The notes beneath the pieces are model-generated. The model saw only the letters and a program-made list of their open reading frames with translations. It did no database searches and was not told the DNA's origin. Below, piece after piece: positions 17,153-62,857 of a stretch of DNA of 64,000 bases. The translations under genes were made by a program, and so were the position numbers. Source of the stretch: an uncultured Gammaproteobacteria bacterium (GTDB lineage Bacteria > Patescibacteriota > Microgenomatia > UBA12405); the NCBI GenBank assembly GCA_964503465.1, contig CAZCYZ010000001.1, positions 298,306 to 362,305 on the forward strand, read 5' to 3'. Every line of letters starts with the position of its first letter. Within the stretch, counting starts at the first letter, position 1.

Positions 17153-17153
17153 T

Positions 17154-17561
17154 TTGCTAAAATATTTCATGTCCGATTGTGTTTTTTGTAAGATTGTTGC
17201 GGGGGAATTGCCGTCTTATAAAACCTACGAAGATGATTTGTTCTTGGCCTTTCTCGACATCAAGCCCCTTACTCCCGGTAACTCACTCCTAATCCCCAAA
17301 AAACATTTCCGTTGGGTTACCGATGTCCCGGAATTTGGTAAGTATTGGGAGGTTGCCAAAAAACTTGCCCTCAAAACTCAAACCATTGTCAAATCAGACT
17401 ACACCACCTTTTTAACCTTAGGTATGGAAGTACCCCACGCCCATATCAGAATTATCCCAAGATTTTACAATGATCAACACTCTACTGGGGTCAATCTTGA
17501 CAAAGTTGTTTCTATTTCACCAGGAGAAATGATTAAACTTTCTGCTAAGATAAAATTATGA
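17154..17561 (+). CDS. HIT-family (histidine triad) nucleotide hydrolase
   Basis: CVFCKIVAGELPSYKTYEDDLFLAFLDIKPLTPGNSLLIPKKHF and the histidine triad HAHIRIIP. The true start may be the ATG at 17169. Confidence 0.8.
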   Translation: MLKYFMSDCVFCKIVAGELPSYKTYEDDLFLAFLDIKPLTPGNSLLIPKKHFRWVTDVPEFGKYWEVAKKLALKTQTIVKSDYTTFLTLGMEVPHAHIRIIPRFYNDQHSTGVNLDKVVSISPGEMIKLSAKIKL

Positions 17562-45556: not shown

Positions 45557-47147
45557 GTGGTTGTTACTAGTCTTATTAGTAGCTTTTTTCGTTAGAGTCT
45601 ATCGACTAGACACCTTGACCCTTTTTGGTGACGAAATTGATGTTGGCAACCAAGCCTATTCACTCCTGACTACCGCCAAAGACTATCGAGGTAACCTTCT
45701 ACCTAGTTATCTTCAGTCGTTTACTGAGTCACGCGCTCCTTTGTTAATCTATTTAACCGTTCCCTCAGTCGCCATTTTTGGCCGCAATGAATATGGGGTC
45801 AGATTACCAGCTGTAGTTTTTGGTCTCGCTTCCATTTTAGGTTTCTATCTTCTTTCATATCGTCTCACTAAATCAAACAAGATCTCTCTTTTGGCCAGTC
45901 TTCTTCTTTCAGTCACCCCTTGGCATTTTCATTACAGCCGCGCTGCCTTTGAGGTCACCCTACTTTTGTCTTTACTTATTTTTGCCACTTGGTTTTATCT
46001 TCAGTCAAAGCCAATTACCTCTCTGGTTCTTTTTGCTCTTTCTTTTTATACCTACAACACCGCCAACGTTTTTACTCCACTGCTTCTCCTGTTTCTCTGT
46101 CTAACCCACCATCTTCCTTTCAAAAAAGTTTTTCCCGGTCTAATCTTATCCCTGATTGTGGTTCTGCCATTACTCTTTCAAATCATTCTTGGTCAAGCCG
46201 GTAATCGCTTCAGTCTCATTAGCGTCTTTAATAGTTCCCAAATCATTAACCAGATTGTTGATCAACGAATCTCCGTCTCTTCCGGCCCCCCATCTTTTTT
46301 TGAAAGAATCTTTCACAACAAACTAATTGCCTATCCAGTCACCATCACCACCAATTACCTTACCAGTTTTTCTCCCCAATTTATTTTTTTTAACGGTGAC
46401 CCCAACCCACGCCACCAAGTTCCCAACTTTGGTCCGTTACTTTTGATCTTCGCTCCCTTACTGATTATCGGACTGTTAAAATATCATCAAAAGTATCCCC
46501 TATTTCTTTTTTGGTTGTTGATTTCTCCTATTGCCTCATCGCTAACCGTTGATGGTGGTCAACATGCCACCAGACTTTTCACTATGCTTCCTCCACTAAT
46601 ATTTTTTACCACCATCGGCCTTCAGTCTTTAAACTTTAAAACTCTGGCCTTACTCACCCCACTCATTTTTATGAATTTCACTCTCTATCTTCATCAATAT
46701 TTTGTTCACCTTCCCAAAATTAATTTTTCCAGTTGGAATTATGGTCAAAAGTATCTTTATTCCACCCCCATTCCTCCATCATCACCAGTGTATGTCAGTA
46801 ATACCAATTTCGATTCGCTCAATTCTTATATTTTTTATCAACATCAAAATTCCCAACTTACTCAAGACCCTTCGTTTAGCGACGTGGAACAAGCCAATGT
46901 CATTGACAACCTTCCCGGATTTAAACTTAACCCCAATACTTATTTTATTAACAATTGGCAAACCCCCGACACTCTCAACCTCATTCAGCAAACGGCCAAA
47001 AAAGGCAATATATATTTCCTTCTTCAGCTTAAAGATATTCCCGGTGATTGGGACCTAACCAAAAGCCCACTTCCAGGTTTTGTCACTCTTAATACCGTCT
47101 ACTTACCCAATCACCAAATTTACGGTCAAGTTATTCAAAAACTGTGA
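45549..47147 (+). CDS. GT-C ArnT/PMT-like membrane glycosyltransferase, tandem paralogue 1
   Basis: GTG start overlapping the upstream stop. TLFGDEIDVGNQAYSLL carries the DE motif. About 11 TM helices and a C-terminal soluble domain. Confidence 0.6.
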   Translation: MNRWLLLVLLVAFFVRVYRLDTLTLFGDEIDVGNQAYSLLTTAKDYRGNLLPSYLQSFTESRAPLLIYLTVPSVAIFGRNEYGVRLPAVVFGLASILGFYLLSYRLTKSNKISLLASLLLSVTPWHFHYSRAAFEVTLLLSLLIFATWFYLQSKPITSLVLFALSFYTYNTANVFTPLLLLFLCLTHHLPFKKVFPGLILSLIVVLPLLFQIILGQAGNRFSLISVFNSSQIINQIVDQRISVSSGPPSFFERIFHNKLIAYPVTITTNYLTSFSPQFIFFNGDPNPRHQVPNFGPLLLIFAPLLIIGLLKYHQKYPLFLFWLLISPIASSLTVDGGQHATRLFTMLPPLIFFTTIGLQSLNFKTLALLTPLIFMNFTLYLHQYFVHLPKINFSSWNYGQKYLYSTPIPPSSPVYVSNTNFDSLNSYIFYQHQNSQLTQDPSFSDVEQANVIDNLPGFKLNPNTYFINNWQTPDTLNLIQQTAKKGNIYFLLQLKDIPGDWDLTKSPLPGFVTLNTVYLPNHQIYGQVIQKL

Positions 47148-48721
47148 AAATAAAAATTATTTTAGCCACATTAATTGTCCTTGGCACATTTTTGCGATTT
47201 TACCGTTTAGGTGATCTTCCTAATTCCTATACTCCCGACGAAATCGCTCAAGGGTACACCGCATATTCAATCATTAAAACCGGCCACGACGAGTGGGGTG
47301 ATCATAACTTTTTATCCCTCCGCTCTTTTGGGGATTTCAAGCCAAGTCTTCAAACCCTACTTATGATCCCTTTCGTCAAGGTTTTTGGTCTTACTCCATT
47401 TGCCATCCGTCTTCCTAATGCTGTTCTTTCTATCCTTTTAATCCCGCTTACATTTGTTTTGGCTCAAAAACTCCTTTTTAACTCTTCCGTTTCCATACTA
47501 GCTACTCTGCTAGTTACCCTCTCTCCCATTACACTTCCTTTGTCACGCCTTGCCCTTGAGGCTAATCTCTTGGTAATCATTAATCTGATTGCTGTTATCC
47601 TTTTTTTGACCAGTCACCGTTATTTCTCACTCTTATTTTTTAGTTTGAGTTTAATCACCTATCATTCAAGCAAAATACTATTTCCACTAATTTTTATCAC
47701 ACTAATTCTCTTCTACAAACGCAGTCGTCGCCTAGTTACTTTGGCTCTAATTTTTTACGTTACCGTCTCACTGCTAACATCTTTCAATCGTACCACTGAT
47801 ATCGCTATCTTTAATCCTACCGATTCTTGGTCATCAGTTTCTGAATCACGTTTCCAGGCTACCAAATCAGGCCTTCCTGACTCCATTAGTCGCATATTTA
47901 ATAATAAGGTCACTTATACATTTTTTCTTTTTGCACATAATTATCTTTCTTATTTTTCTCCTCAGTTCTTAGCCACCAGTGGTGCCGGCGAAACCACTTA
48001 TGGCATGATCCCAGGGCAGGGGATTTTAGGTATCATCCCTTTTTTGGGTCTTTGTTTAGCACTCGTTTTTCTTCTTAGAACTAAGAATAAATCACTCTTG
48101 TTTCTTTTTGTAATTGTTCTGATTACTCCCATTGCTGCCGCCTTGTCAAAAGGTAGTTATTCCGCCAATCGCCTAAGCTCCATCAGCCCCTACATTCAAA
48201 TACTCGCCGCCTACGGTCTTTTTCAATTATTTCAGCTTCGTCATCGCTGGCTCAGTCTACTTCTTGTGGCATTTCTTTCTTTTGAAATAGGAAATTTCCT
48301 GGTTACTTATTTCTTTCGGGCCAATCAGATCCTCGCCCCAGGCATGCTTTATGGCCATCGTCAAGCTCTCGAATACCTTCGTCAATATTCCAATTCAACT
48401 ATTATCTATTCTCGTCGCCTTTCTGAACCGCAAGCATATGTCAGTTTTTTTAACCAAGTTGACCCCTTTATTGTCCAACAGGCCTCAACCCAATGGCTTA
48501 ATTATCAAGGCAAAGGCCTTAAGTTTCTGGACCAACTAGGTGAATACCATCTTCAAAATTATCTTTTTAAAGAAATTAACTTTTCCTCCGATAGTCAAAT
48601 ACCCAACTCCATCCTGGTTGGTCGCCCAGAAGAGTTTCCCGGTGTCACCCCAAGTAAAATAATTTTCTATCCGGACTTCAATCATCTTAGCCCAGCCATT
48701 TATATCTATCACTCTCAATGA
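47144..48721 (+). CDS. GT-C ArnT/PMT-like membrane glycosyltransferase, tandem paralogue 2
   Basis: GTG start (GTGA overlap). YTPDEIAQGYTAYSIIKTGHDEWG...RSFGDFKP. Confidence 0.65.
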   Translation: MKIKIILATLIVLGTFLRFYRLGDLPNSYTPDEIAQGYTAYSIIKTGHDEWGDHNFLSLRSFGDFKPSLQTLLMIPFVKVFGLTPFAIRLPNAVLSILLIPLTFVLAQKLLFNSSVSILATLLVTLSPITLPLSRLALEANLLVIINLIAVILFLTSHRYFSLLFFSLSLITYHSSKILFPLIFITLILFYKRSRRLVTLALIFYVTVSLLTSFNRTTDIAIFNPTDSWSSVSESRFQATKSGLPDSISRIFNNKVTYTFFLFAHNYLSYFSPQFLATSGAGETTYGMIPGQGILGIIPFLGLCLALVFLLRTKNKSLLFLFVIVLITPIAAALSKGSYSANRLSSISPYIQILAAYGLFQLFQLRHRWLSLLLVAFLSFEIGNFLVTYFFRANQILAPGMLYGHRQALEYLRQYSNSTIIYSRRLSEPQAYVSFFNQVDPFIVQQASTQWLNYQGKGLKFLDQLGEYHLQNYLFKEINFSSDSQIPNSILVGRPEEFPGVTPSKIIFYPDFNHLSPAIYIYHSQ

Positions 48722-50247
48722 TTTTAATACTCTTCTTAATTGCTCTTATTCCTCGAATTATCTCCATCAGTTTCCTTCCTCCAAGCCTCAATTGGGATGA
48801 AGTTTCGCATGGTTACAACGCTTATTCCCTACTTTCTACCGGCAAAGACGAGTGGGGACACTCTCTGCCTCTTATTTTTCAAGCCTATGGTGACTACAAA
48901 CTACCACTATATGTTTATCTCACCACCATTCCGGTTGCCATTTTCGGGCTTAATCCTTTGTCGGTTCGTTTAATTTCAATTTTGGCTGGTAGTCTTCTCC
49001 CAATTGTTATCTATTTTTTCCTCAAAAAGTTCATTTCTTCAACTTCAGCCTTTATTACCAGTCTTGTGATTGCACTCTCTCCCTGGTCAATTTTTCTTTC
49101 CCGAATCGCCGTCGAAGCCAACCTTTTTCTTTTCCTCTATATCACCTCGCTCTACTTCCTTTCTCGACACCGGTTCGCTTATAGTACTTTTTTTTACGCT
49201 CTATCACTTCTAACCTACAACAGCAGCCGGGTACTTATATTTCCATATTTTTTAGCCACTTTTTTCATTGCCCGCCAACAGCATTATTCATTTCTAAAAA
49301 ACTTACCAAAATTTATCTTTCCTGCACTAGTATTCGTCGTTGTTCTCATTCAGTCTTCTTCACCCGCAGGTCAAGCTCGCTATCAGTGGGTCTCTATTCT
49401 TGATTCCGGTGCCATCAACCATATTGAACAACTTCGTCAAAAATACCCCAGAATTCTAGTTAACAAAGTTACCTATTTTACCTATCAAACAACCAAGAAT
49501 TATCTGGCTCATTTTAACCCTGCCTACTTATTCTTAAATGGGGGATCACATTATCAATTCAACATCCCTCAGTTTTATCTTATCAGTCCTCTACTTATAC
49601 CATTCCTCTTGCTTGGTTTTTTGGCACTCAAAAAATACCCCTTAATACTCTTCTTTCTTCTTGTTTCACCACTCCCTTCTGCTATTACCCGCGACGCTCC
49701 ACAAATTCTTCGCAGTCTAGCCTTTTTACCCCTTATCTCAATGGTCATTGGGCTTGGAATTAATCACAGTCTCAAAAATAAACCTTTCTTTTTCCTGAGT
49801 TTATTTTTTCTCTTTTTAACATTAGTCATTTCTCAAGTCCAATTTTGGTCAAGTTACCAAGAATATCGATATCAATATTCTCAGTCTTGGCAGTACGGTC
49901 ATCAACAACTAGTCAATAGCGTTAAATCAAAATACTCACGGTACCAAAAAATAATCGTCACCAAAAGATATGGTGAACCACATGAGTTTTTTCTTTTCTT
50001 CTGGCCATGGCCTCCTCAAGATTACCAAAAAAACAAACTATGGGACTATCATGCCAACTGGTACTGGATTAATGGTTTTGATAAGTTCACCTTCGTCAAC
50101 GATTGGGACATCAAAGACCTTTCTATCGCACCATCTACTTTATTAGTCACCAGTCCAGGTAATTTCCCGTCGGGAAGCCACCGCCTCCTCGAGACTATTA
50201 ATTTCCTTGACGGCCAACCAGCTTTTGATCTTATTAGCTATGAATAA
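48718..50247 (+). CDS. GT-C ArnT/PMT-like membrane glycosyltransferase, tandem paralogue 3
   Basis: ATGA overlap. NWDEVSHGYNAYSLLSTGKDEWG...QAYGDYKLP. The C-terminus has YGEPHEFFLFFWPWPP. Confidence 0.65.
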   Translation: MILILFLIALIPRIISISFLPPSLNWDEVSHGYNAYSLLSTGKDEWGHSLPLIFQAYGDYKLPLYVYLTTIPVAIFGLNPLSVRLISILAGSLLPIVIYFFLKKFISSTSAFITSLVIALSPWSIFLSRIAVEANLFLFLYITSLYFLSRHRFAYSTFFYALSLLTYNSSRVLIFPYFLATFFIARQQHYSFLKNLPKFIFPALVFVVVLIQSSSPAGQARYQWVSILDSGAINHIEQLRQKYPRILVNKVTYFTYQTTKNYLAHFNPAYLFLNGGSHYQFNIPQFYLISPLLIPFLLLGFLALKKYPLILFFLLVSPLPSAITRDAPQILRSLAFLPLISMVIGLGINHSLKNKPFFFLSLFFLFLTLVISQVQFWSSYQEYRYQYSQSWQYGHQQLVNSVKSKYSRYQKIIVTKRYGEPHEFFLFFWPWPPQDYQKNKLWDYHANWYWINGFDKFTFVNDWDIKDLSIAPSTLLVTSPGNFPSGSHRLLETINFLDGQPAFDLISYE

Positions 50248-51820
50248 AGAAAAATTTATCCTAATCGGCATTCTTCTTGGCTCAGTTCTAATCAGAACCT
50301 ATCGGGTAGGGGACACCCCCCCACTTCTCTGGGACGAGGCCGCTCTTGGTTATAATGCCTATTCCATTCTTCAAACCGCCCATGACGAACATGGCCAGTT
50401 GTTACCCCTAATTTTTAAATCCTTCGGCGACTATAAACCAGGAATTTATATTTACTTAACTCTTCCTTGTATTGCTATTTTTGGACTCAACCCTTTTTCA
50501 GTTCGCTTGCCATCTATTTTGTCTGGTTCTCTTATCCCCCTACTTCTATATTTACTTATTCGACAATTACTTCCTCGGCAAAGAAATCTCGCCACACTTT
50601 CAGCTCTGATTATGGTTTTTAATCCATTCAACATTCATTTTTCTCGAGGAGCATGGGAAACTAATATCCTTACCTTTCAAATTTTATTGGCCAGTTTACT
50701 TTTTTTCCGTAAAAAATACCTTACTTCAGCCATTATTTTTGGTATTTCTCTCTACACTTATCAATCAGCTAAGCTTTTAAGCCCCCTTATAATCTTAGCT
50801 CTAATCATTTCCACTCAAAGTAATCTCAGATCTATCTTAAATAAATTTTTCTTACCCCTATTGACCATCTCTATTCCCTTGATTTACGGGATTGTTTTTG
50901 GTCAAGATTCAAACCGCCTCAAAGTTATGAGTCTTCTCTCCTATCCTCGATCGACCACCGAAACTCAAACCATCATTACAGAATCAAATATCACCAACTA
51001 TCAACTTTTTCATAACCAACTGATTTTCTTTAGTCGAAATTTCTTTTCCCGCTACTTTAATCATTTTTCTCCTCGCTTTCTTATTTTTGAAGGAGACTGG
51101 CAAAACCCTCGCCATTCCGCCCCATATGTCGGTCTTCTTCTTTATCCTTCAATCGTTTTTTTTCTCATCGGTTTGTTATCTTCAGATTATCGATTACCAG
51201 CTACCAAGCTCTTACTTCTCTGGTTAATTTTAGCCCCTATCCCCTCAGCTCTTACCCGCGATTCCGTCTCCGCCGTCAGAGCCTTACCGCTTTCAATCCC
51301 CTCAGTCTATTTTATTGCCACCGGCATTAATATTTTTCTTTACCGATATAAGTCCATCACTATCTACTGTTTGTTGTTTACTGTCTACATACTTTCATTT
51401 ACCTATTATTCCGATCTCTATCTAAACCACATGGTTAAAAGATCACCCAAAGACTTTTTATACGGTTATAGCCAAGCTATAAACTATGTCATCCAAAATC
51501 AATCCAAATATCAACAGGTTATTTTTACTCAATTTTATGGCCAACCATATATCTATTACCTTTTTTACAGTCACTATTCACCATCCTCCTATCAACAACA
51601 AAATAGTTACAATCAAAACGGCCTTGATACGGGAGTTGTGTCCCAAATTGGTAATGTTTATTTTAAAGAACCCCAATTTAACCAAGTCGAACTTCAGCCA
51701 GGAACACTAGCCATTTTTTCCCACGACGAAGTTCTTCGTCAAAACATTGATCCCCAAACTCTTATCTCCCTAAGTCCTATTGGTGGTTATTCAACTTTCT
51801 ATGCCTATGAAAACCCCTAA
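50240..51820 (+). CDS. GT-C ArnT/PMT-like membrane glycosyltransferase, tandem paralogue 4
   Basis: The start was set at the ATG at 50240. LWDEAALGYNAYSILQTAHDEHG...KSFGDYKP. The C-terminus has YGQPYIYYLFYSHYSP. Confidence 0.65.
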   Translation: MNKEKFILIGILLGSVLIRTYRVGDTPPLLWDEAALGYNAYSILQTAHDEHGQLLPLIFKSFGDYKPGIYIYLTLPCIAIFGLNPFSVRLPSILSGSLIPLLLYLLIRQLLPRQRNLATLSALIMVFNPFNIHFSRGAWETNILTFQILLASLLFFRKKYLTSAIIFGISLYTYQSAKLLSPLIILALIISTQSNLRSILNKFFLPLLTISIPLIYGIVFGQDSNRLKVMSLLSYPRSTTETQTIITESNITNYQLFHNQLIFFSRNFFSRYFNHFSPRFLIFEGDWQNPRHSAPYVGLLLYPSIVFFLIGLLSSDYRLPATKLLLLWLILAPIPSALTRDSVSAVRALPLSIPSVYFIATGINIFLYRYKSITIYCLLFTVYILSFTYYSDLYLNHMVKRSPKDFLYGYSQAINYVIQNQSKYQQVIFTQFYGQPYIYYLFYSHYSPSSYQQQNSYNQNGLDTGVVSQIGNVYFKEPQFNQVELQPGTLAIFSHDEVLRQNIDPQTLISLSPIGGYSTFYAYENP

Positions 51821-53396
51821 GATATTCCTTACCATTATTTTTTGCCTTGCTACTTTTTTGAGACTGTATCATCTTGGTTTCTATCCTACTCTCAATCCTG
51901 ACGAGGCCGCCCTAGGTTACAATGCTTTTTCGCTTCTTCAAACAGGCAAAGATGAGCATGGTGTTTCCTGGCCACTTCATCTTAAATCATTTGGTGACAA
52001 CAAACCGGCCGGCTACACCTATCTTCTTCTTCCGTTTATCAAAATTATTGGCCTTACCCCATTGGCTGTTCGACTCCCCAATGCCATTTTTTCAATTTTG
52101 GCCATCTATATTCTATATAAACTTATTTTGCTTTTAACCTCAAATCAAAATCTTTCCCTTTTAACCTCATTTATTCTAGCTATCAATCCATGGCATATTC
52201 ACTTCTCTCGAGGAGCTTGGGAGTCATCGACTGCCCTGACCCTTGTCCTTCTGGGAATCTATTTTTTCTATCTTCATCTCAAAAATTTCAAACTACTCTA
52301 CCTTTCGATACTATTTTTTGTTCTCTCGCTCTACTTCTATCATTCTGCTCGTATTATTGCTCCACTTCTGCTTCTATCTCTATGTTTTGTCCATAAATCA
52401 TACTTCATAAATCACATTTCAAAGATATTTCTTCCTTTTGTTTTTGGCGCTATTCTGGTTCTTCCTGTCCTATTCTCTTTTCTCAAAAACGGTGGTGCCA
52501 CCCGTTTTAGCGGCGTTGGCCTAACGGCCGATTATGGCCCTATCTCGCGGGCGGAAGAACTTCTAAACCACCACATGAATATCAAGCTCGTCAATCGCAT
52601 TATTCACAACAAAAGAACCCTATATTTTATCTCCTGGGGGCAAAAGTATTTTTCTCATTTTGATATCAATTTTCTCTTTGTTAATGGTGATGAAGTTCCT
52701 CGCTCCAAAGTTCCCGAAATGGGCCAATTCTACCTTCTTGAATTTCCATTTTTACTTCTCGGAGTTTTTTTCTTGTTTAATTCTCCCCAATTTAAAACTT
52801 TAAAATTTCTCACCCTAAATTTGCTCGTTGTCTCCCCCCTAGCATCATCATTGACCTTCCAGGCCCCTTCCGCTCTTCGATCTCTACCTCTAAGTATCCC
52901 CCTAACTGTTCTCATTTCTCTTGGCTTATATCAAGCCATCAACCGATTTCCTAAAGTTAGTTACAGCTTATTATTCATAGGCTATCTTCTTTCAATTACC
53001 TATTATCTTGATTCCTACTACGTTCATTACCAAAAACGTTATCCCTTTGCCTGGAATTACGGCTTTGATCAAGTTACTTCCTATCTTCAATCCCAAAAAA
53101 ACAATTACCAAAACATTTATCTTACTAATAAATATGACCAGCCATATATTCTTTATCTCTTTTTCTCCCAATATCCGCCCCAACAACTTCATTCTCAAAT
53201 TAAGTTGACTCCACCCGACCAATTTGGTTTCTCCACTGTTCATCAAATCGATAATCTTCATTTTGAAAAAATAGACTGGAACAACATCCCCTCAGACTCC
53301 CTAGTTATCACGGCTGATGAACCCATCCCAATAGACCCCATCAAAATCATTAACTTTCCCAATTACGCCCCAGGATTTAAAATATATATCAAATGA
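51807..53396 (+). CDS. GT-C ArnT/PMT-like membrane glycosyltransferase, tandem paralogue 5
   Basis: The start was set at the ATG at 51807. LNPDEAALGYNAFSLLQTGKDEHG...KSFGDNKP. The C-terminus has YDQPYILYLFFSQYPP. Confidence 0.65.
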   Translation: MKTPKIFLTIIFCLATFLRLYHLGFYPTLNPDEAALGYNAFSLLQTGKDEHGVSWPLHLKSFGDNKPAGYTYLLLPFIKIIGLTPLAVRLPNAIFSILAIYILYKLILLLTSNQNLSLLTSFILAINPWHIHFSRGAWESSTALTLVLLGIYFFYLHLKNFKLLYLSILFFVLSLYFYHSARIIAPLLLLSLCFVHKSYFINHISKIFLPFVFGAILVLPVLFSFLKNGGATRFSGVGLTADYGPISRAEELLNHHMNIKLVNRIIHNKRTLYFISWGQKYFSHFDINFLFVNGDEVPRSKVPEMGQFYLLEFPFLLLGVFFLFNSPQFKTLKFLTLNLLVVSPLASSLTFQAPSALRSLPLSIPLTVLISLGLYQAINRFPKVSYSLLFIGYLLSITYYLDSYYVHYQKRYPFAWNYGFDQVTSYLQSQKNNYQNIYLTNKYDQPYILYLFFSQYPPQQLHSQIKLTPPDQFGFSTVHQIDNLHFEKIDWNNIPSDSLVITADEPIPIDPIKIINFPNYAPGFKIYIK

Positions 53397-54145
53397 CCAT
53401 TTCTGTTGCCATCGCCACTTACAACGAAGAGGCCAATATCCAACGCTGTTTAAAAGCAGTTTCCGACTGGGTCAACGATATCGTCATTTATGATGGTCAA
53501 TCTTCCGATAATACGGTTAAAGTTGCTAGAACTTTCAAGAAAGTCCAAATCATATCTGGCCCTAATCATCAAATTTTTCATATCAACAAACAAGCTGCCA
53601 TTGACGCCTGTAAAAGTGATTGGATTCTTCAGCTTGATGCCGACGAAGTTGTTACCCCACAATTGGCCACCGAAATCCAACAAATTATTCAAAATACCCC
53701 CCACAATGGTTTTTGGCTTAAACGCAAAAACTATTTTCTTGGAACCTTTCTTACTAAAGGGGGCACATACCCTGACTCCACTCTCAGGCTTTACCGACGA
53801 GGAAAAGGGGCACTACCCTGTCACGATGTCCACGAACAGGCTATTGTCGACGGTTCCACCTCCAGCCTCCAAAATGATCTTTTACATTATGATTCTCCCA
53901 CCTTTAGTCGCTTTATCTTTAGAAACGATCATTATAGTAGCATTCTTGCCACCCAAATTACTAATCCAAATTTTGTCAGTTATTTCTTTTTAAAACCATG
54001 CCTCACTTTTTTTTCCATTTTTCTCCGGCACCGAGGTTATATTGATGGTTTCCCTGGTTTTGTCTTTGCTTTTTATTCTGCTTTGCGATTTCCTTCGGCC
54101 TATGTTAAATACTGGGAAAACCATTATGCCAAAAATCGCCATTGA
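53393..54145 (+). CDS. GT2 glycosyltransferase
   Basis: ISVAIATYNEEANIQRCLKAV...VIYDGQSSDNT and QLDADE. Confidence 0.7.
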   Translation: MTISVAIATYNEEANIQRCLKAVSDWVNDIVIYDGQSSDNTVKVARTFKKVQIISGPNHQIFHINKQAAIDACKSDWILQLDADEVVTPQLATEIQQIIQNTPHNGFWLKRKNYFLGTFLTKGGTYPDSTLRLYRRGKGALPCHDVHEQAIVDGSTSSLQNDLLHYDSPTFSRFIFRNDHYSSILATQITNPNFVSYFFLKPCLTFFSIFLRHRGYIDGFPGFVFAFYSALRFPSAYVKYWENHYAKNRH

Positions 54146-55184
54146 CATATCGCCAACTATCGATGGTAACGCAGTTCGTGGTATTGGCTACTACACCAAG
54201 AATTTAGTCTCTGCAATTCAATCCGAGGTCAAAACCAACCCACACTACCACAATTGGCAAATCAATCTAATCACCAGTCCACAATCGTTAACCTCTAATT
54301 ATCAACTTATCCACTACCCATACTTCGATCCTTTCAAGCTTACTCTGCCCCACCGACAATCAGTTCCCACCATCGTCACTGTTCCCGATTTGATACCCAT
54401 CCAATTTGCCAAACATTTTCCGGTTGGTGTTAAGGGTCAAATCAAATGGTTAATTCAAAAAAACCAACTCAAAAAAACGACCTATATCATCACCATTTCT
54501 CACTATGTCAAACATGTCATCAGGAATATCATTGGTTACCCCAAGGATCGTATTTTTGTTACCTGGCTAGACGCGTCTTTAATGTCTCAGCCAGTTAAAA
54601 ACAACTTTAAAACCATGGTCCAAAAATATAATTTACCGCCTAAATTCATCCTCTATGTCGGTGACGTTAATTGGAACAAAAATATTCCCAATCTAGTTCG
54701 CGCCTGTTTATCTCTAGGCTATCATTTGGTTATCGCTGGTGCTTCAGCCACTAAATCCGTCCCAGACCATCCTTGGACCCAAGATATCATTTGGTTGCAG
54801 CAACAAAAATCTCCTTTCCTCCACCTTCTAGGATTTGTTCCAGATGAAGACAAACCTTATCTCTTCAAATTAGCCACCATTTACTGTCAACCGTCTTTTT
54901 CCGAAGGCTTTGGTATTCCCCCTGTCGAAGCCATGAAGTCTGGTTGTCCAGTTGCTTATAGTCAAGAAAGCAGTCTCCCAGAAGTCATGGATTTTTGCGG
55001 TGAGTTCTTTGATCCCTACTCTGTTGATTCAATTAAATCTAGTCTCCAAAAACTTTGGACCAACCAAAAGCTTCGTCAAAAATATATCCGGCTCGGTCTT
55101 GCCAGAGGTAAAGTTTTTGATTGGAAATATACCGCCCTTCAAACACTCGCCATCTATCAGCTAGCCTTATTAAATGAAAGATAA
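54126..55184 (+). CDS. GT4 (GT-B) glycosyltransferase
   Basis: The start was set at the ATG at 54126. C-terminal FSEGFGIPPVEAMKSGCPV. Confidence 0.65.
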   Translation: MPKIAIDISPTIDGNAVRGIGYYTKNLVSAIQSEVKTNPHYHNWQINLITSPQSLTSNYQLIHYPYFDPFKLTLPHRQSVPTIVTVPDLIPIQFAKHFPVGVKGQIKWLIQKNQLKKTTYIITISHYVKHVIRNIIGYPKDRIFVTWLDASLMSQPVKNNFKTMVQKYNLPPKFILYVGDVNWNKNIPNLVRACLSLGYHLVIAGASATKSVPDHPWTQDIIWLQQQKSPFLHLLGFVPDEDKPYLFKLATIYCQPSFSEGFGIPPVEAMKSGCPVAYSQESSLPEVMDFCGEFFDPYSVDSIKSSLQKLWTNQKLRQKYIRLGLARGKVFDWKYTALQTLAIYQLALLNER

Positions 55185-55977
55185 AAAACACTTTATCTCT
55201 GTTATTGTACCCATATATCAACAGGCCCGAACTATCCGTCAGGACCTTTATTCCATCTATGACACCCTCGAACAAATTCGATACGATTACGAAATTATTG
55301 CCATTGTTGACGGAACAAGCATCGATAATTCATACCAGGAAGCCAAGAAACTCAAACTCAAAAGACTAAAGGTTATCGGATATCCTCAAAATAAAGGTAA
55401 AGGTTATGCAGTCAGGTTTGGCATGGCACACACCACAGGCGATTACATTGCCTTTATTGATTCTGGAATGGATATTGATCCTAATGGTATTTCCATGATT
55501 CTAGAACACATGGAGTGGTATCAGGCCGATATTGTTGTTGGCTCAAAACGTCACCCGGCCTCACAAATCAACTACCCACTTCATCGTCGTATTATCAGTT
55601 TTGGTGCCCAATTAATTGCCAAATACCTACTTAACATTAATGTCACCGATACTCAGGTGGGGTTAAAGATTTTCCGCCGTCCAGTACTCGAAAAAGTTCT
55701 CCCTCGTCTTCTAGTCAAAACATTCGCTTTCGACCTCGAAATATTGTCTGTTGCTAACCGTTTAGGTTTTAGCAAAATTTACGAAGCCCCCATCAAAATA
55801 AATTTTGATTTCTCGGGATCTCATCTTCAGGGTAAATTCTTTCAAACCCTTCTTCTTTGCCTCAAAGATTCTTTGGCAGTTTTTTATCGCCTCCGGCTAC
55901 TTCGATACTACGATGATACCAGCAGAAGAAGGTGGAAATTTGATCCTCAACTTAAAATGCGTGTTAACATCGGTTAA
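55174..55977 (+). CDS. GT2 glycosyltransferase (DPM1/GtrB-like)
   Basis: ISVIVPIYQQARTIRQDL...IIAIVDGTSIDNS and FIDSGMDIDP. Confidence 0.7.
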   Translation: MKDKKHFISVIVPIYQQARTIRQDLYSIYDTLEQIRYDYEIIAIVDGTSIDNSYQEAKKLKLKRLKVIGYPQNKGKGYAVRFGMAHTTGDYIAFIDSGMDIDPNGISMILEHMEWYQADIVVGSKRHPASQINYPLHRRIISFGAQLIAKYLLNINVTDTQVGLKIFRRPVLEKVLPRLLVKTFAFDLEILSVANRLGFSKIYEAPIKINFDFSGSHLQGKFFQTLLLCLKDSLAVFYRLRLLRYYDDTSRRRWKFDPQLKMRVNIG

Positions 55978-56939
55978 TGTCACCACTACTTTTTTCAATT
56001 ATTATTCCCGTTAGGCTGAAAACTAATTATCTTCGCCAAACTCTCAAAAAACTCCAACAACAAACTTGCAAATCGTTTGAGGTCCTGGTCATAACCGACA
56101 AGTTGTCCGGCTCAGCCAACCCAGCTCAAAAACGTAATCTTGGTGCAAAAATGTCCCAAGGCAAATATCTTGCCTTCATAGATGACGACTCCTATCCTTC
56201 AAAAACCTGGCTGGAAAGTATCAATAAATTGTTTTCCCCTGGAATTGCCGCTGTTTGTGGTCCATGTCTTACCCCGGCCAGCGATAACATTTATCAAAAA
56301 GCTTCAGGGTTAGTTTGGAGCAGTTTATTGGGAAGTGGCGGTGCTGGCCTATATCGTAACAGTGTTCAAAAACCAATGTTCGTCGACGATTACCCGTCTG
56401 TTAATCTTATAGTCCGCAAAAATGACTTTACCGCCGTTAAGGGCTTTGATACCCACCACTGGCCCGGCGAAGATACAATCTTGTGCCTTAACTTAACTAA
56501 AAAACTTCACCAAAAGATTCTCTATCACCCATCAGTCATTGTCTATCATCATCGTCGTCCAGTTTTGATTCCCCATCTTCAGCAAATATCTCGCTATGCC
56601 CTACATCGCGGACACTTTGCCCGCGTATTTCCTGAAACCAGTTTTAAAATTGGTTATCTGATGCCCAGTTTGTCCGTAATATACTTCATCGTTTTTCCAA
56701 TTTTATTACCAGTTCTTCGACTCTATTACTTTATTCCTTTTATTGTCTATTTATTGCTTATTTTCTTTACTTTTATTTCTTTTCTTAAGAAAAACAATTT
56801 TTTGACTAGTATTTTGGCTACCATCACCATCCCCTTGACTCATCTTTATTACGGTATACTCTTTCCTATTGGCTTTTTCAAAAAAAACCTATCTTTCAAA
56901 GCCCACTCCACTAACAAACATGGCTACATCGGCGGTTAA
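55977..56939 (+). CDS. GT2 glycosyltransferase with C-terminal TM helices
   Basis: FSIIIPVRLKTNYLRQTLKKL...VLVITD and FIDDDS. The C-terminal hydrophobic segment has 2-3 TM helices. Confidence 0.6.
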   Translation: MSPLLFSIIIPVRLKTNYLRQTLKKLQQQTCKSFEVLVITDKLSGSANPAQKRNLGAKMSQGKYLAFIDDDSYPSKTWLESINKLFSPGIAAVCGPCLTPASDNIYQKASGLVWSSLLGSGGAGLYRNSVQKPMFVDDYPSVNLIVRKNDFTAVKGFDTHHWPGEDTILCLNLTKKLHQKILYHPSVIVYHHRRPVLIPHLQQISRYALHRGHFARVFPETSFKIGYLMPSLSVIYFIVFPILLPVLRLYYFIPFIVYLLLIFFTFISFLKKNNFLTSILATITIPLTHLYYGILFPIGFFKKNLSFKAHSTNKHGYIGG

Positions 56940-58368
56940 CTTTTTAATATCTATTTCGTACCCACCCCTATCATCACCCAAAGGTGTTCCCTTCCTTTCA
57001 CAAAACCGCCAATTTCAGTGGACCAATACAGACAATGTTATTTATCCCGTTGTTCCCGCCTACGCTGCCACCCTTCTTGTCAAAAATGGCTACCATGTTT
57101 TTTGGGATGATGCCATTGCTCAAAAACTTACCAAACAACAGTGGTTGGCTCGAATCATTAAACAACGCCCAAACCTCATTGCTATTGAAACCAAAACCCC
57201 AGTTATCAAAACACATTGGCGAATTATCAACACCCTTAAACAGAAGCTGCCTAAAACAATTATTGTTTTAATGGGTGACCATGTTACCGCTCTCCCCCAG
57301 GAATCTTTCCAGCATTCTAAGGTTGACTATGTTCTCACCGGTGGAGACTATGATTTCATGCTCCTTAACCTTGCTAATCACCTTACTAAAAAAACAAGTT
57401 TGGAACCAGGATTTTACATGTCAAGTTCCAACACGGGTCAATTCAAGCCTCACCATCATCTTGGTCAACTTCCAGTCCTTGACCGCCAGCTCACCCAATG
57501 GCAACTGTATTCTCGCCATAATACCAACTATAAGTACAAACCCGGTGCTTATATTATGTCAGCTCGTGATTGTTGGTGGGGCAAGTGCACCTTTTGTTCC
57601 TGGACTACTCTCTATCCTTCCTATCGCACTCTTTCTGTTAAACAAACTATCAATGAAATCAAAAACTTGGTTAAATTGGGTACTCGGGAAATATTTGACG
57701 ATGCTGGTACTATTCCAGTTGGCCCATGGCTTGGTGATCTTTGCCACCAGCTAGTTGATCAAGGACTAAATCAGAAGGTCACAATTAGTTGTAATATGCG
57801 TTTCGGTGCTCTCAATCAACAGCAATATCAATTAATGGGTCAGGCGGGTTTTCGTTTCCTTCTCTATGGACTCGAGTCAGCCAACCAAATGACCATTGAT
57901 CGGCTCAAGAAAAACATCAAAATTGACTGGATCAAAAGAGACCTAAAATGGGCAAAACAAGCTGGTCTCGAACCACACGTTACTATCATGATCGGTTACC
58001 CTTGGGAAGATTTATCTCAAGCCAAAAACACCCTATCTTTATCAAAGGAACTTTTTCGTCTTGGCCTAGTTGATAGCATGCAAGCCACCATTGTCATCCC
58101 TTATCCTGGTACCCCGCTTTTTGACTATTGTCAAAAAAACCAATTGCTTCTATCAACCAACTGGAATGACTACGATATGCGTCAACCAATAATGAAATCA
58201 CCTTTAACTCACCATCAGCTCCAAACATTAATTGATTCTCTTTTTAAATCAGCCTGGGAACCGAAGTTCCTTATTCGCAAAGTACTCTCTATTAGGTCAA
58301 TCGACGATATCAACCATCTAGTCAACTATGCCATTAAATTCTTACAAAAACTCCGTGACTTTAGTTAG
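56920..58368 (+). CDS. B12-binding-domain radical SAM protein (variant CX4CX2C cluster motif)
   Basis: The start was set at the ATG at 56920. N-terminal Rossmann-like B12-binding-type region (VPAYAATLLVKNGYHVFWDD). Then MSARDCWWGKCTFCSW, then a TIM-barrel-like region. Confidence 0.5.
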   Translation: MATSAVNFLISISYPPLSSPKGVPFLSQNRQFQWTNTDNVIYPVVPAYAATLLVKNGYHVFWDDAIAQKLTKQQWLARIIKQRPNLIAIETKTPVIKTHWRIINTLKQKLPKTIIVLMGDHVTALPQESFQHSKVDYVLTGGDYDFMLLNLANHLTKKTSLEPGFYMSSSNTGQFKPHHHLGQLPVLDRQLTQWQLYSRHNTNYKYKPGAYIMSARDCWWGKCTFCSWTTLYPSYRTLSVKQTINEIKNLVKLGTREIFDDAGTIPVGPWLGDLCHQLVDQGLNQKVTISCNMRFGALNQQQYQLMGQAGFRFLLYGLESANQMTIDRLKKNIKIDWIKRDLKWAKQAGLEPHVTIMIGYPWEDLSQAKNTLSLSKELFRLGLVDSMQATIVIPYPGTPLFDYCQKNQLLLSTNWNDYDMRQPIMKSPLTHHQLQTLIDSLFKSAWEPKFLIRKVLSIRSIDDINHLVNYAIKFLQKLRDFS

Positions 58369-59374
58369 TATCATTATCCCCACCCTCAATGCTGGTAGGG
58401 TCCTAATACCATGTCTCAAATCGATCGTCAAACAGAATTATCCACATACTGAGATCATTATTGCCGATGGTGGTTCAACCGACAATACCATTGCTATTGC
58501 CAACAAATTTAAAACCAAAATTGTTACCAATCAACTCAAGACCGCCGAAGCTGGTAAGGCCATCGGGCTCAAATATGCCAAAGGTCAATATATCGCCTTC
58601 ATCGATTCGGACAACATCCTCCCATATACGAACTGGCTGTCAACTATGCTAATTCCATTTAAAGACTCCGATATCGTCTGTACCGAACCAATCCGCTTTA
58701 CCTATCGTCGCAACGGGGGATTTATCGAGCGCTACGGTGCTCTTCTTGGGGCCAATGATCCTTATGCATGGTTCACTGGCGTTTATGATCGCTATAGTTA
58801 TCTTACCAACAATTGGACAGGTCTAAAATTAGATCAAATAGACAATCATAAATATATATCTGTCAATTTTAATAATAGTCAAATTCTCCCCACCATTGGT
58901 GCTAATGGGACTATCTTTAGGGCTAGTTTTCTCAAAAAGTACTTTTTCGGTCACTATCTTTTTGATATTGACATTCTTTCTTTGGCTTTACAGAAGAAAA
59001 ATACAGTTAAGGTTGCCAAACTAAAAACTGGCATTATCCATACATATTGTGAGTCATCAATTTCAAAATTCATTCGTAAACAAACCCGTCGTTTAACTGA
59101 CATGTATCAATACCAATCCATTCGCCAATATAACTGGCACCAAAAAAATAACATTTTCTCACTCGTTAAATCTAACTTTCGCTTTGCTCTCTACTCTATT
59201 CTCGTTCTTCCCGCGCTATTCGATTCTGTGCGTGGTTACCTCAAGAAAGCCGACTCGGCTTGGTTTTTCCATCCAATCGCCTGTTTTTTGTCTTTTATCA
59301 TTTATACCAGAGTAACCGTGGCTCATCTTCTTGGTATAAAACAGTATACCAGTAGACAACAATGGCAACAGTAA
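58328..59374 (+). CDS. GT2 glycosyltransferase
   Basis: VSIIIPTLNAGRVLIPCLKSI...IIIADGGSTDNT and FIDSDN. Confidence 0.65.
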   Translation: MPLNSYKNSVTLVSIIIPTLNAGRVLIPCLKSIVKQNYPHTEIIIADGGSTDNTIAIANKFKTKIVTNQLKTAEAGKAIGLKYAKGQYIAFIDSDNILPYTNWLSTMLIPFKDSDIVCTEPIRFTYRRNGGFIERYGALLGANDPYAWFTGVYDRYSYLTNNWTGLKLDQIDNHKYISVNFNNSQILPTIGANGTIFRASFLKKYFFGHYLFDIDILSLALQKKNTVKVAKLKTGIIHTYCESSISKFIRKQTRRLTDMYQYQSIRQYNWHQKNNIFSLVKSNFRFALYSILVLPALFDSVRGYLKKADSAWFFHPIACFLSFIIYTRVTVAHLLGIKQYTSRQQWQQ

Positions 59375-60468
59375 AACCAGGAATCTTAATCTTAAGTCCA
59401 TTTTTCTCTCCCAACATTGGTGGTGTCGAAACTCATCTTGATGATTTGGTTGCGGGTCTTCAAAATTTTTCTGTTTTTGTATTTTCTTACTCTCCAATTA
59501 CTACCCCCAATGTTCGTTATCAAATTTTTGAAAAACGAGGAAACCTCCAAATCGTCCGCCTTCCCCACTTTGGTAAAAATCTCTTCCACCAGCTAGAAAA
59601 ATATTCCATCCTTGACTTTTTATATCTCACACCATACCTTTTAATCTTCTCATTTTTATGGATGCTTTTTAACTCATCCAAAGTTAAGACAATTCATTCT
59701 CATGGTTTTAATGCCGCTTTTATTGGTAATCTCCTGGCCACTTTCTTTCGCAAAAAACATGTTACCTCAACTCATGCTGTTTACGAACACATTCATGGTC
59801 TCAGTTTAAAGTTAGTCGTTGCCACCCTTTCCGCCGTCGACCACATTCTCTGCCTTTCCCAAGCCTCACAAAAACAACTTTTAAGCTGGGGACTAAGTCC
59901 TGCCAAAACAAGCCTTTATCAATATTGGATTAACTTAAATAATTTTGTTCCAGTCACCACTCCACCCAAAAAATTTACTGTTCTTTATGTTGGCCGCTTA
60001 ATCACAAAGAAGGGAATCCGATTAATCCTTCAATCAGCCATCAATATTCGTTCTGCCCAATTTAACTTTATCGGTACTGGACCAGCAGAAGAAACCATTA
60101 GAAGGTTTTCCAAAAAATACAAAAATATTAATTTCACTGGCCCCATCCCCAATTCCTATCTACCTCAGTACTATCAACAAGCATCCATACTCTGCCTTCC
60201 GTCACTTTATCCCGAAGGTTATGGCCGAGTTGTCATGGAAGCGGTTGCGTCTGGACTACCTGTTATCGCCTCCAACACCGCTGGTCTCAAAGAAGCTTTA
60301 AGCTCCAAAGTTGCTATTCTTATCAAGCCAACTGTCAAAAATCTCACTTTGGCTATTAAAAAACTCCAGCATAAACAAACTTATAATCATCTTCGTCGAA
60401 ACTGCCGTCACTATGCCCTTGCAAAGTTTAGCTCCTCAAATATAAAATCGATCACCAGGTTCTATTAA
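59362..60468 (+). CDS. GT4 (GT-B) glycosyltransferase
   Basis: ILSPFFSPNIGGVETHLDDL, and C-terminal EGYGRVVMEAVASGLPVIASNTAGLKEAL. Confidence 0.7.
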   Translation: MATVKPGILILSPFFSPNIGGVETHLDDLVAGLQNFSVFVFSYSPITTPNVRYQIFEKRGNLQIVRLPHFGKNLFHQLEKYSILDFLYLTPYLLIFSFLWMLFNSSKVKTIHSHGFNAAFIGNLLATFFRKKHVTSTHAVYEHIHGLSLKLVVATLSAVDHILCLSQASQKQLLSWGLSPAKTSLYQYWINLNNFVPVTTPPKKFTVLYVGRLITKKGIRLILQSAINIRSAQFNFIGTGPAEETIRRFSKKYKNINFTGPIPNSYLPQYYQQASILCLPSLYPEGYGRVVMEAVASGLPVIASNTAGLKEALSSKVAILIKPTVKNLTLAIKKLQHKQTYNHLRRNCRHYALAKFSSSNIKSITRFY

Positions 60469-62231
60469 TGAAAGTCTTATTCATCCTTCCCTACCACAAT
60501 GCCTCGGCCGCCGTTTTCGAAAACGGTCAATGCCTTGAATATCTTCATGAAGAAAAGTTTACCAATATCAAAAGCCACTGGGGATTTCCCGGGTTGTCAG
60601 TAGACTATCTTGTCAACAAGTATTCCCTAAAATCTACTGACCATGTTGTTTTTTCCGGTAAACAGCTCCTTCTTCATACTCTTCCAAAACCATCCAGTAA
60701 CCTAGCAGAGGACATTGGCACCAATCCCCATCTCCGACAATTAACCAATTACGTTGAATACAAGACTAAAGCCAAAAAACTTTTTTTTACCATCCGCTCA
60801 ATCTTTCTTGACAAAATAATCTCTCCATTAGCCAGAAACCAAATGCGACAATATCTCTTAACAAGATACAATGTACCAACCAATAATACACATTTTTTTG
60901 ACCACCATCTCTGTCACGCCCTTTCTCCAGTTCATTTTTATAATCTTCACTCTCAAACTCACCCAATTTTAATCTTTACTATGGATGGAAGCGGGGACAA
61001 TTATTTCTCAAAAACTTTCATATATTATCCTGCCAACAACAAACTCAAACCAATTGCTAAGTCTCGTTTTGATTCATCTCTCGGACTGCTATATTCTGGT
61101 TTAACCCAATTTTTGGGGATGAAACCTTACGAGCATGAATACAAAGTTATGGGATTAGCTGCTTACCCTAACGATCCAAAATACTACCAAAACATTCTCA
61201 TTCGTCTTCAAAAAGATTTTGGTTATGATCAAAAGTCTCAAACATTTCAATCATCATTCAACACCAACTATTCATTTTATTATTTTAAAGAACATTTTGT
61301 TGGTCAAAGGTTCGATAATCTAGCCGCTGCTCTCCAAACACACCTCGACAACCTTATAACACTATGGATCACCACTACTATTAAAAAATACCACATCCAC
61401 ACCATCGCTTTATCGGGTGGGGTTTTTATGAACGTCAAGGTTAATAAGCTAATTCAAGAGCTCCCCTTAGTCAAAAAGGCTTATTTTATGCCATCTGCAG
61501 GAGATGAAAGTCTTGGTTGGGGAGCGGCATATCAAATTTTTTCTCAAAGAAAAATTAACACCCAGTCCAATTCTACTATGTTTCTTGGGCTTAATTATTC
61601 AAATCAACAAATCCAAGCATTTATTAAAAAAAATAGATTAGATAAAAAATTTGATATAAAGTATTTAAAAAATCCCAGCCAAAAAATTGCCAATTTACTT
61701 AGCCATCATCAAGTTGTTGCCTGGTTTACTGGAGCAGGGGAGTGGGGTGCTCGATCTTTGTGTCATCGGACGATTCTTGCCAATGCCTCTGATTTCAATT
61801 CTTATCACCAGGTCAATGATGCTATCAAAATGCGTGACTTCTGGATGCCTTTTGCCCCGACAATTCTCTTCGATTGGGCACCAAGATATATTAAAAACTG
61901 GCAAAAATTAAAAAACAAAATCAAAGAAAGTTCCAAATATATGATTACTGCATTTGACTCCACCCCATTGGCTCAAAAACACCTAATTGCTGCCATCCAC
62001 TCCAAAGACAAAAGCCTCCGCCCCCAATTGGTCGAAAAATCGGACCACCCAACACTCTATCGACTCCTCAAATATTTCGAAAAATATACCGGTATGGGCG
62101 GGGTGATGAATACATCTCTCAACATCCATGGTTATCCGTTAGTTGGCAACCTCAATCAGGCTATTTTCACCCTCGAGAACTCCCAGCTTAAGTATCTGGT
62201 TCTAGAAAACTATCTTCTTATTAAAAAATGA
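60468..62231 (+). CDS. NodU/CmcH/TobZ-family O-carbamoyltransferase
   Basis: 587 aa. N-terminal MKVLFILPYHNASAAVFENGQ...EEKFTNIKSHWGFP. HHLCHALSPVHF is the family His signature. A C-terminal YrdC/Kae1-like domain. Confidence 0.7.
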   Translation: MKVLFILPYHNASAAVFENGQCLEYLHEEKFTNIKSHWGFPGLSVDYLVNKYSLKSTDHVVFSGKQLLLHTLPKPSSNLAEDIGTNPHLRQLTNYVEYKTKAKKLFFTIRSIFLDKIISPLARNQMRQYLLTRYNVPTNNTHFFDHHLCHALSPVHFYNLHSQTHPILIFTMDGSGDNYFSKTFIYYPANNKLKPIAKSRFDSSLGLLYSGLTQFLGMKPYEHEYKVMGLAAYPNDPKYYQNILIRLQKDFGYDQKSQTFQSSFNTNYSFYYFKEHFVGQRFDNLAAALQTHLDNLITLWITTTIKKYHIHTIALSGGVFMNVKVNKLIQELPLVKKAYFMPSAGDESLGWGAAYQIFSQRKINTQSNSTMFLGLNYSNQQIQAFIKKNRLDKKFDIKYLKNPSQKIANLLSHHQVVAWFTGAGEWGARSLCHRTILANASDFNSYHQVNDAIKMRDFWMPFAPTILFDWAPRYIKNWQKLKNKIKESSKYMITAFDSTPLAQKHLIAAIHSKDKSLRPQLVEKSDHPTLYRLLKYFEKYTGMGGVMNTSLNIHGYPLVGNLNQAIFTLENSQLKYLVLENYLLIKK

Positions 62232-62857
62232 CCAACTATTACCACCGATATTGGCAAAAAAAACTTAAAAGCAAAAGTCAGGGAAGTCCACCTATCTGGA
62301 CCCAAGCAAACTTCAACTATCATTTTGATTTTGCAAAACCATACTTTGGATCAAAAATACTCGACATTGGAGCCGGTGACGGCACCTTCGACAACTATCT
62401 CCAATCAAAAATTAATTCCAATGTCATCTCGCTTGAGCCTACCCTACAGGCTATCAAACAAGGTCAAAAACTCTACCCCAATAACAAGTTTATAAACTCC
62501 TCAGCCGAAAAACTTCCGTTTTCCGCAAACAGCTTCAACACCGCCCTTCTTATTGAAGTTATCGAACACTTAATCGATACCGATATCGCTTTGTCAGAGA
62601 TATATCGAATTTTAAAACCAAAAGGATATCTATTTATCACCACCACTGATTTTAATTTTCTCAAAAAGGTTCTCCTTGCCGCCTTCGCTTGGGACAAATA
62701 TTTTTACCCCAATAATCCCCATATCCGCTTCTTTACTCGTCAAACACTAACAGAAATCTGCTCAACACATCATTTTAAATTAATTAAGTACCAATGGAAC
62801 GGTAGTTATTTTCACCTAATGCCCAAAGGTCAAATGGCTATCTTTCAAAAATGCTAA
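62228..62857 (+). CDS. class I SAM-dependent methyltransferase
   Basis: ILDIGAGDGTF and LKPKGYLFITT. ATGA overlap with the carbamoyltransferase. Confidence 0.6.
   Translation: MTNYYHRYWQKKLKSKSQGSPPIWTQANFNYHFDFAKPYFGSKILDIGAGDGTFDNYLQSKINSNVISLEPTLQAIKQGQKLYPNNKFINSSAEKLPFSANSFNTALLIEVIEHLIDTDIALSEIYRILKPKGYLFITTTDFNFLKKVLLAAFAWDKYFYPNNPHIRFFTRQTLTEICSTHHFKLIKYQWNGSYFHLMPKGQMAIFQKC

Follow-up and report, generated by a model that had tools for sequence, protein, structure and literature searches.

A radical-SAM subfamily widespread in Patescibacteria with a CX4CX2C cysteine loop and a glycosylation-cluster setting

Among described enzymes, the best-scoring named family for the gene studied here is HpnJ (TIGR03471), a hopanoid-associated radical S-adenosylmethionine (SAM) protein of the B12 type, which has been proposed to contract the ring of the glucosamine in bacteriohopanetetrol glucosamine. 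The gene in question encodes a radical-SAM protein with a B12-binding-type domain, and lies in a window of 64,000 nucleotides (the whole stretch of DNA analysed, positions 298,306 to 362,305 of contig CAZCYZ010000001.1). HpnJ acts on a lipid-linked sugar, and its own gene adjoins hpnI, coding for a GT2 glycosyltransferase, in a genuine hpnI-hpnJ-hpnK locus of hopanoid context. The second named family is BchE (TIGR02026), the cobalamin-dependent anaerobic Mg-protoporphyrin monomethylester cyclase, which, like HpnJ, does not methylate and lies on the same branch; both have the canonical CX3CX2C cluster motif (CRSRCTFC in HpnJ, CPFTCRFC in BchE). The nearest known structure is that of AprD4 (PDB 6fd2), a radical-SAM 1,2-diol dehydratase of paromamine that works with the reductase AprD3 and does not bind cobalamin (PMC12931638, PMC5461906). 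A CX4CX2C motif has been described in OxsB (PDB 5ul2-4), whose crystal structures show a normal [4Fe-4S]/SAM site (PMC9204698), and in the cobalamin-dependent sugar C-methylases GenD1 and Sis14 (PMC4340712); these enzymes also have the same two-domain core as the protein described here.

We found that the 482-residue product shares the CX4CX2C motif, and that it is a member of an uncharacterised subfamily on the HpnJ/BchE branch, widespread in Patescibacteria, which fails no defining feature of the radical-SAM superfamily. The spacing is non-canonical yet has precedent; it is a marker of the subfamily and no evidence of new chemistry. As to function, we give roughly even chances to the reading that the protein is a radical-SAM enzyme of class-B architecture that modifies an envelope-glycan sugar by a non-methylating rearrangement or elimination, with an N-terminal domain that probably holds base-off cobalamin.

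The cysteine loop and its conservation

The product is 100% identical to NCBI protein P0001, whose gene lies on a 470-kb contig. A longer form starting at a TTG at 56869 is possible, but the ATG at 56920 is preferred because alignments to homologues begin at about residue 1-10 when translation starts there and because this ATG overlaps the end of the upstream gene by 20 nt. Open reading frames at 56984-57271 and 57275-57754 were treated as mechanical artefacts, being out of frame with the strongly conserved coding sequence that encloses them. There are six cysteines in the protein (residues 218, 223, 226, 275, 291 and 404), of which only the first three are clustered. The initial annotation had described a C-x4-C-x2-C spacing in a sole clustered trio, and on both points it was right, the DNA at 57571-57597 and its translation agreeing on the spacing. 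The extended loop (Table 1) reaches from R216, two positions ahead of the first cysteine, to W228, two positions beyond the third.

All 120 best database homologues, which are 60-100% identical, read CWWG[KRQ]CxFC, that is, with four residues between the first two cysteines (x4), and the named members among them are Shapirobacteria, Microgenomates or 'Patescibacteria group'. A genome scan with one genome per species found a relative in at least 573 species genomes, mostly of Shapirobacteria and other Patescibacteria lineages. Loop lengths were counted in 113 representatives of 50%-identity clusters with a detectable motif: x3 was found in 57, x4 in 41, x7 (CWWRKDGGCTFC) in 7, x9 in 3, and lengths from x10 to x17 in the remaining 5. 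The loop is mostly x4 in relatives above about 35% identity, and almost all x3 below about 31%; when the protein was aligned with an annotated HpnJ by BLASTP (25% identity over 362 aa), a single-residue gap fell in the Cys loop. Judged from these sequences, the branch has a Cys loop of variable length, with x4 as the signature of a clade, which agrees with the earlier proposal that the spacing marks a distinct subfamily.

The extra residue would be a one-residue insertion fixed in the clade (CPFxC to CWWGKC), which the loop would tolerate, as in OxsB. The OxsB motif reads CDYSRCTFC in a HMMER alignment, and that of the queuine lyase 6p78 reads CIWGKCSFC. Archaeal Elp3 is likewise x4. Clusters with spacings from x4 to x11 are found at RadicalSAM.org (PMC9477430). 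With these precedents and those of OxsB and GenD1, the spacing is not new, nor is it especially rare, contrary to what had been supposed. It had also been suggested that it could change the chemistry; since loop length is labile, from x3 to x17, nothing indicates that x4 does so, and OxsB combines x4 with a normal SAM site. In itself, then, the CX4CX2C spacing is of little weight, being a useful subfamily signature with structural precedent in a loop of labile length.

Several observations on the relatives of this protein may be recorded here. The full-length paralogues P0137, P0138, P0142, P0145 and P0153, about 33-39% identical, have lost all three cluster cysteines and kept much else, and from their sequences are probably catalytically dead radical-SAM-like proteins. 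Inteins (Hint/Intein_splicing plus LAGLIDADG) are present in homologues P0121, P0124, P0129, P0131, P0152, P0207, P0122 and P0198, at three sites: directly before the third cluster cysteine (CTF/C...N/CSWTT, slashes marking the junctions), before the first cluster cysteine (HN/CWW), and before T140 of the TGGDYD motif. All three sites fall in motifs that are among the most conserved of the protein. In the related locus L002, further B12-type radical-SAM paralogues, about 23% identical, follow the orthologue at 9472-11019 and 16318-17479 and have CX3CX2C motifs (CPHRCAFC and CPSTCTFC). Tandem or nearby radical-SAM copies occur in other related loci too; within the 64-kb window, tblastn found no other radical-SAM paralogue. 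Orthologues with 52-64% identity and the same synteny carry the labels 'uncultured Gammaproteobacteria', 'Candidatus Methanoperedens', 'archaeon', 'Nitrospinae' and 'Deltaproteobacteria' (L007, L013-L015, L018, L066, L069, L072 and others); the bins in question are probably mislabelled or contaminated, and no true occurrence outside Patescibacteria.

Family assignment and predicted fold

The Pfam model PF04055 (Radical_SAM) matches residues 218-372 with 49.9 bits, which passes its gathering threshold of 29.5. The motif C218-x4-C223-x-F225-C226 sits at the aligned position of the radical-SAM Cys loop that follows barrel strand beta1, with F225 as the invariant aromatic residue before the last cysteine. 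The strand leading to the FDDAG motif spans residues 257-260 in the AlphaFold2 model, and the motif itself aligns with the corresponding stretch in AprD4 and MgmA; the G-E-S of the ribose-binding motif is kept across the wider family, HpnJ included; and the strand of the GxIxGxxE motif spans residues 351-358. Since the classical SAM-binding elements are all present and invariant, the protein looks like an active radical-SAM enzyme and no relic, and its original assignment to the superfamily is upheld by the PF04055 score together with these motifs.

Among NCBIfam models, the class-B matches are sub-threshold and were called full-length: HpnJ (129.3 bits over residues 40-479, cut-off 577.6), BchE (96.1 bits over residues 43-429, cut-off 481), PhpK (77 bits) and HpnR (63 bits). 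The models of HpnJ, BchE and PhpK, which are B12-type families, align through the N-terminal domain, and homologues of the protein are already annotated 'B12-binding domain-containing radical SAM protein'. With HpnJ it has in common the domain order, the E/H-T-x-T-P, GxH, GE-like, RxC...CTFCxW, GES and GxP positions, and a GT2 gene as neighbour. Orthology with HpnJ was nevertheless rejected, on the score, on the CX3 spacing of genuine HpnJ and on a neighbouring GT2 that is unlike HpnI; the host phylum differs as well, and we found no HpnK-like gene among the scanned neighbours and no hopanoid context at the locus. Membership of BchE was rejected on its score, and that family differs also in its CX3CX2C motif, its porphyrin substrate and its photosynthesis gene cluster. 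AprD4, despite being the best fold match (15% identity), is ruled out as an orthologue at the sequence level: its model NF033070 scores 32.2 bits against a cut-off of 500, and covers the barrel only (residues 236-408).

The AlphaFold2 model (predicted local distance difference test, pLDDT, 89.7; predicted template modelling score, pTM, 0.90) was built on an 89-sequence alignment. It shows, in order, a Rossmann domain, a linker, a partial TIM barrel at about residues 205-400, and a C-terminal domain made of helices. A Rossmann-type domain ahead of the barrel is the arrangement of class-B radical-SAM proteins (SFLD subgroup 5, RadicalSAM.org Megacluster-2-1). Within the core, confidence is lowest in the Cys loop, as expected for a model from which the cluster is absent. 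The nearest structures after AprD4 are the B12-dependent TsrM, CysS, MgmA, TokK and OxsB. An N-terminal Rossmann domain of about 150 aa had been predicted from the sequence, and it is modelled at residues 9-157 with a fold of the B12-binding type; the N-terminal 170 aa alone, compared with PDB sequences, gave chance matches only.

Cobalamin and the proposed reaction

In the mechanism that we propose, C218, C223 and C226 would ligate a [4Fe-4S] cluster which, once reduced, would cleave SAM to give a 5'-deoxyadenosyl radical, and this radical would abstract a hydrogen from a carbon of the sugar in an intermediate of the envelope glycan. The intermediate would probably be anchored in the membrane (polyprenyl- or lipid-linked) as the product of the translationally coupled GT2. 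The reaction that we prefer would be a rearrangement or elimination without methylation, as for HpnJ, BchE and AprD4, and the N-terminal domain would probably hold base-off cobalamin. Our preference rests on the nearest named families and the nearest structure, none of which is a methylase, and on the lysine at the lower face. The C-methylation or epimerisation of sugars proposed in the initial annotation is not favoured by the nearest relatives: neither HpnJ nor BchE methylates, and AprD4 is a dehydratase that works without cobalamin.

Positions of cobalamin contact were mapped through the motif definitions of PMC9204698, a HMMER profile alignment to OxsB and the family alignment. A88, E90 and K92 were aligned to G182, S184 and N186 of OxsB, K92 being at the position of R69 in TsrM; distant relatives read G-[ST]-x-x-T-P here, and T93-P94 is conserved family-wide. 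The G119-D-H121 motif was aligned to G-P-H in distant relatives and V-G-N in OxsB, and TGGDYD to G-E-x-E in relatives and K-E-G-E in OxsB. Cobalamin-motif positions are thus retained in modified form and are invariant in the clade (T93-P94, G119, H121, G142 and D143). In TokK, Trp215, at the Cys-X2-Cys-X-Trp position, stacks between the cluster and cobalamin (PMC9204698); R216 and W228 match Arg204 and Trp215 of TokK by motif register only. A hydrophilic lower-face residue is the pattern in enzymes without radical methylation (PMC12931638), and the lower-axial-equivalent residue here, the invariant K92, is of the hydrophilic type. The B12-binding model PF02310 has a precomputed match in roughly half of the 120 homologues, and reaches 34-40 bits, above threshold, in four intein-bearing relatives. 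Taken together, the residue pattern appears compatible with a modified cobalamin site, which is no proof of one.

Several points weigh against the reading that we prefer. PF02310 scores 27.6 bits against a threshold of 32.1 for the 482-aa protein, and the canonical G-x-S, GPH and GEGE are replaced by A-x-E, GDH and GGDYD. AprD4, the closest structure, lacks cobalamin, so a Rossmann fold alone is insufficient for cobalamin binding. Of the cobalamin-binding domain first described, the Rossmann fold stands, and the binding of cobalamin is putative, given the sub-threshold score and the replaced residues. The upstream GT2 has no similarity to HpnI (E = 0.19), and the lipid-linked substrate is suggested by analogy with HpnJ. 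The x4 loop seen in 79 of the 80 best loci from the genome scan is a partly circular count, because RDCWWG[KR]C was one of the two search patterns of that scan. Patescibacteria are not known to make cobalamin. Furthermore, most class-B enzymes are methylases (PMC9204698, PMC13598231), and W228, at two residues after the third cysteine, is of the TokK type, a prediction for radical methylases (PMC9204698).

These last points lead to the alternative of a C-methylase, which we hold to be less likely than the preferred reading but a serious rival to it. The 5'-deoxyadenosyl radical would take a sugar hydrogen, methylcobalamin would give a methyl radical and a second SAM would remethylate Co(I), as in GenK, GenD1 and TokK. 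Besides the preponderance of methylases in class B, this alternative has in its favour the Cx4Cx2C motif of the sugar C-methylase GenD1 (PMC4340712), the invariant W228 and R216 at the positions of TokK Trp215 and Arg204, and the sub-threshold matches to PhpK and HpnR, both methylase models. However, W228 does not discriminate, as HpnJ shares a Trp after the third cysteine; the two best sequence models, HpnJ and BchE, describe non-methylases, and the top structure is a dehydratase. The lower-axial-equivalent lysine stands against the hydrophobic Trp or Leu of radical methylases, and separate class I methyltransferases are often found in these clusters.

It is quite unlikely, in our view, that the protein is instead a cobalamin-independent enzyme of the AprD4 type, whose Rossmann domain would have a structural or substrate-binding role only and which would act on a sugar with SAM alone, by radical dehydration, deoxygenation or the like. 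Cofactor biosynthesis is minimal in Patescibacteria, which would suit such an enzyme; so would the action of AprD4 on an aminosugar without cobalamin, the sub-threshold PF02310 score and the substituted canonical residues. Against this, the AprD4 model is confined to the barrel, whereas those of HpnJ, BchE and PhpK reach through the N-terminal domain, and the residues T93-P94, G119, H121 and G142-D143 are retained and invariant. In homologue P0198 an intein is inserted exactly before T140, which suggests that TGGDYD is functionally critical, and the neighbours scanned with Pfam include no AprD3-like reductase. Finally, a sequencing or assembly error behind the extra residue, or a decaying pseudo-enzyme, has next to no chance of being the explanation, for although the cysteine-less paralogues show that loss of function occurs in the family, the frame is intact, the synteny is conserved, and the error or pseudogene reading is refuted by the identical x4 spacing in 120 of 120 independent homologues (the closest ones, where CX3CX2C would have pointed to a local error) together with invariant SAM-binding motifs.

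The preferred reading, a non-methylating class-B enzyme, can be carried further, to a version that we consider unlikely as it stands: a Patescibacteria-wide cobalamin-dependent enzyme that, in the manner of HpnJ, rearranges a membrane-anchored, GT2-made sugar (by ring contraction, dehydration or similar) into an unusual envelope sugar. Were this HpnJ-like cobalamin version true, bacteria with reduced genomes, largely uncultured, would need scavenged B12 for the assembly of their cell surface, and cobalamin would sit in a distinct environment made up of the Trp-rich CX4 Cys loop, invariant K92 and the QNRQFQW 'His loop'. Characterisation of the protein would give a function to a subfamily of radical-SAM proteins present in at least 573 species-level genomes, mostly Patescibacteria, amid a conserved envelope-glycosylation module. 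It would also add to the small, poorly understood set of possibly non-methylating class-B enzymes (HpnJ, BchE, OxsB), and would show whether organisms unable to make B12 still use it for surface glycans.

The glycosylation cluster

The radical-SAM gene overlaps both of its GT2 neighbours (at 56920-56939 and 58328-58368), which indicates operonic, translationally coupled expression. In 60 of 70 related loci an orthologue of the upstream GT2 immediately precedes the radical-SAM gene, of which it is the tightest-linked partner; the downstream GT2 adjoins the radical-SAM gene in 31 of 65. The module PMT-GT2-GT4-GT2-GT2-radical SAM-GT2 recurs in related loci. The glycosylation-cluster setting originally reported is thus confirmed, with GT2, GT4, PMT_2, carbamoyltransferase and methyltransferase genes around the radical-SAM gene (Table 1). 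A relative on a Lawsonia plasmid, 28% identical and with an x3 loop, sits among GT2, GalE, SIS and methyltransferase genes. A literature search on Patescibacteria radical-SAM proteins with glycosyltransferases gave nothing relevant.

Table 1. Features of the radical-SAM gene and of its neighbourhood, in positions of the window
Feature	Positions	Strand	Details
Five tandem PMT_2/PMT (GT-C, ArnT-like) membrane glycosyltransferases	45549..53396	+	Pfam; upstream in related loci too
GT2 - GT4 - GT2 genes of the conserved module	53393..55977	+	Pfam; same order in L001, L002 and most long loci
GT2 glycosyltransferase with C-terminal membrane region	55977..56939	+	Pfam GT2; overlaps radical-SAM start by 20 nt
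Radical-SAM protein gene with B12-binding-type domain	56920..58368	+	ATG at 56920, stop codon included; 482 aa
N-terminal Rossmann domain (flavodoxin-like, B12-binding-type), residues 9-157	56944..57390	+	Five strands and five helices in the AlphaFold2 model
Loop of the N-terminal domain	57001..57021	+	Invariant columns (89 sequences); HpnJ-like relatives read G-S-R-W; putative role after PMC9204698
G-x-S-x-L position, A88-I-E90-T-K92-T93-P94	57181..57201	+	E90, K92, T93 invariant (89 sequences)
G119-D-H121 after beta4, GG/'GPH' motif position	57274..57282	+	Invariant in clade
T140-G-G-D-Y-D145, start of alpha5, GE/'GEGE' position	57337..57354	+	G141, G142, D143, D145 invariant
Extended Cys loop, R216-D-C...C-S-W228	57565..57603	+	R216, W228 invariant (89-sequence alignment)
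Cluster motif C218-WWGK-C223-TF-C226 (CX4CX2C)	57571..57597	+	TGT TGG TGG GGC AAG TGC ACC TTT TGT
F259-D-D-A-G263, GGE-type SAM motif, end of barrel strand beta2	57694..57708	+	F259, D260, D261, G263 invariant (89 sequences)
G317-L-E-S320, ribose-binding motif	57868..57879	+	G317, E319, S320 invariant (89 sequences)
T355-I-M-I-G-Y-P-W-E363, GxIxGxxE motif	57982..58008	+	T355, G359, Y360, P361, W362, E363 invariant (89 sequences)
Downstream GT2 glycosyltransferase	58328..59374	+	Pfam GT2; overlaps radical-SAM stop by 41 nt
GT4, NodU/CmcH-type carbamoyltransferase, class I SAM methyltransferase	59362..62857	+	Pfam, NCBIfam; variable accessories, in some related loci only

The co-directional island begins at about 28-29 kb and has further PMT_2 genes inside. 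The tandem set of PMT_2/PMT paralogues is unusually large (29016-34099 and 45549-53396), at least seven of them with Pfam matches, and is interspersed with large open reading frames of similar size without a Pfam match, such as that at 30434-31909. A further open reading frame of 418 aa in the co-directional cluster (44300-45556) has no Pfam or NCBIfam match. The gene for the NodU/CmcH-type carbamoyltransferase (60468-62231) is found in few related loci, and suggests an O-carbamoylated sugar. Inside the island lies a Wzx-type flippase gene (Polysacc_synt_3, 35742-37187), and an LCP (LytR_cpsA_psr) gene is found at 22796-23806, beside a peptide chain release factor gene (PCRF/RF-1 domains). The flippase and LCP genes would fit a glycan that is lipid-linked, flipped and attached to the wall.

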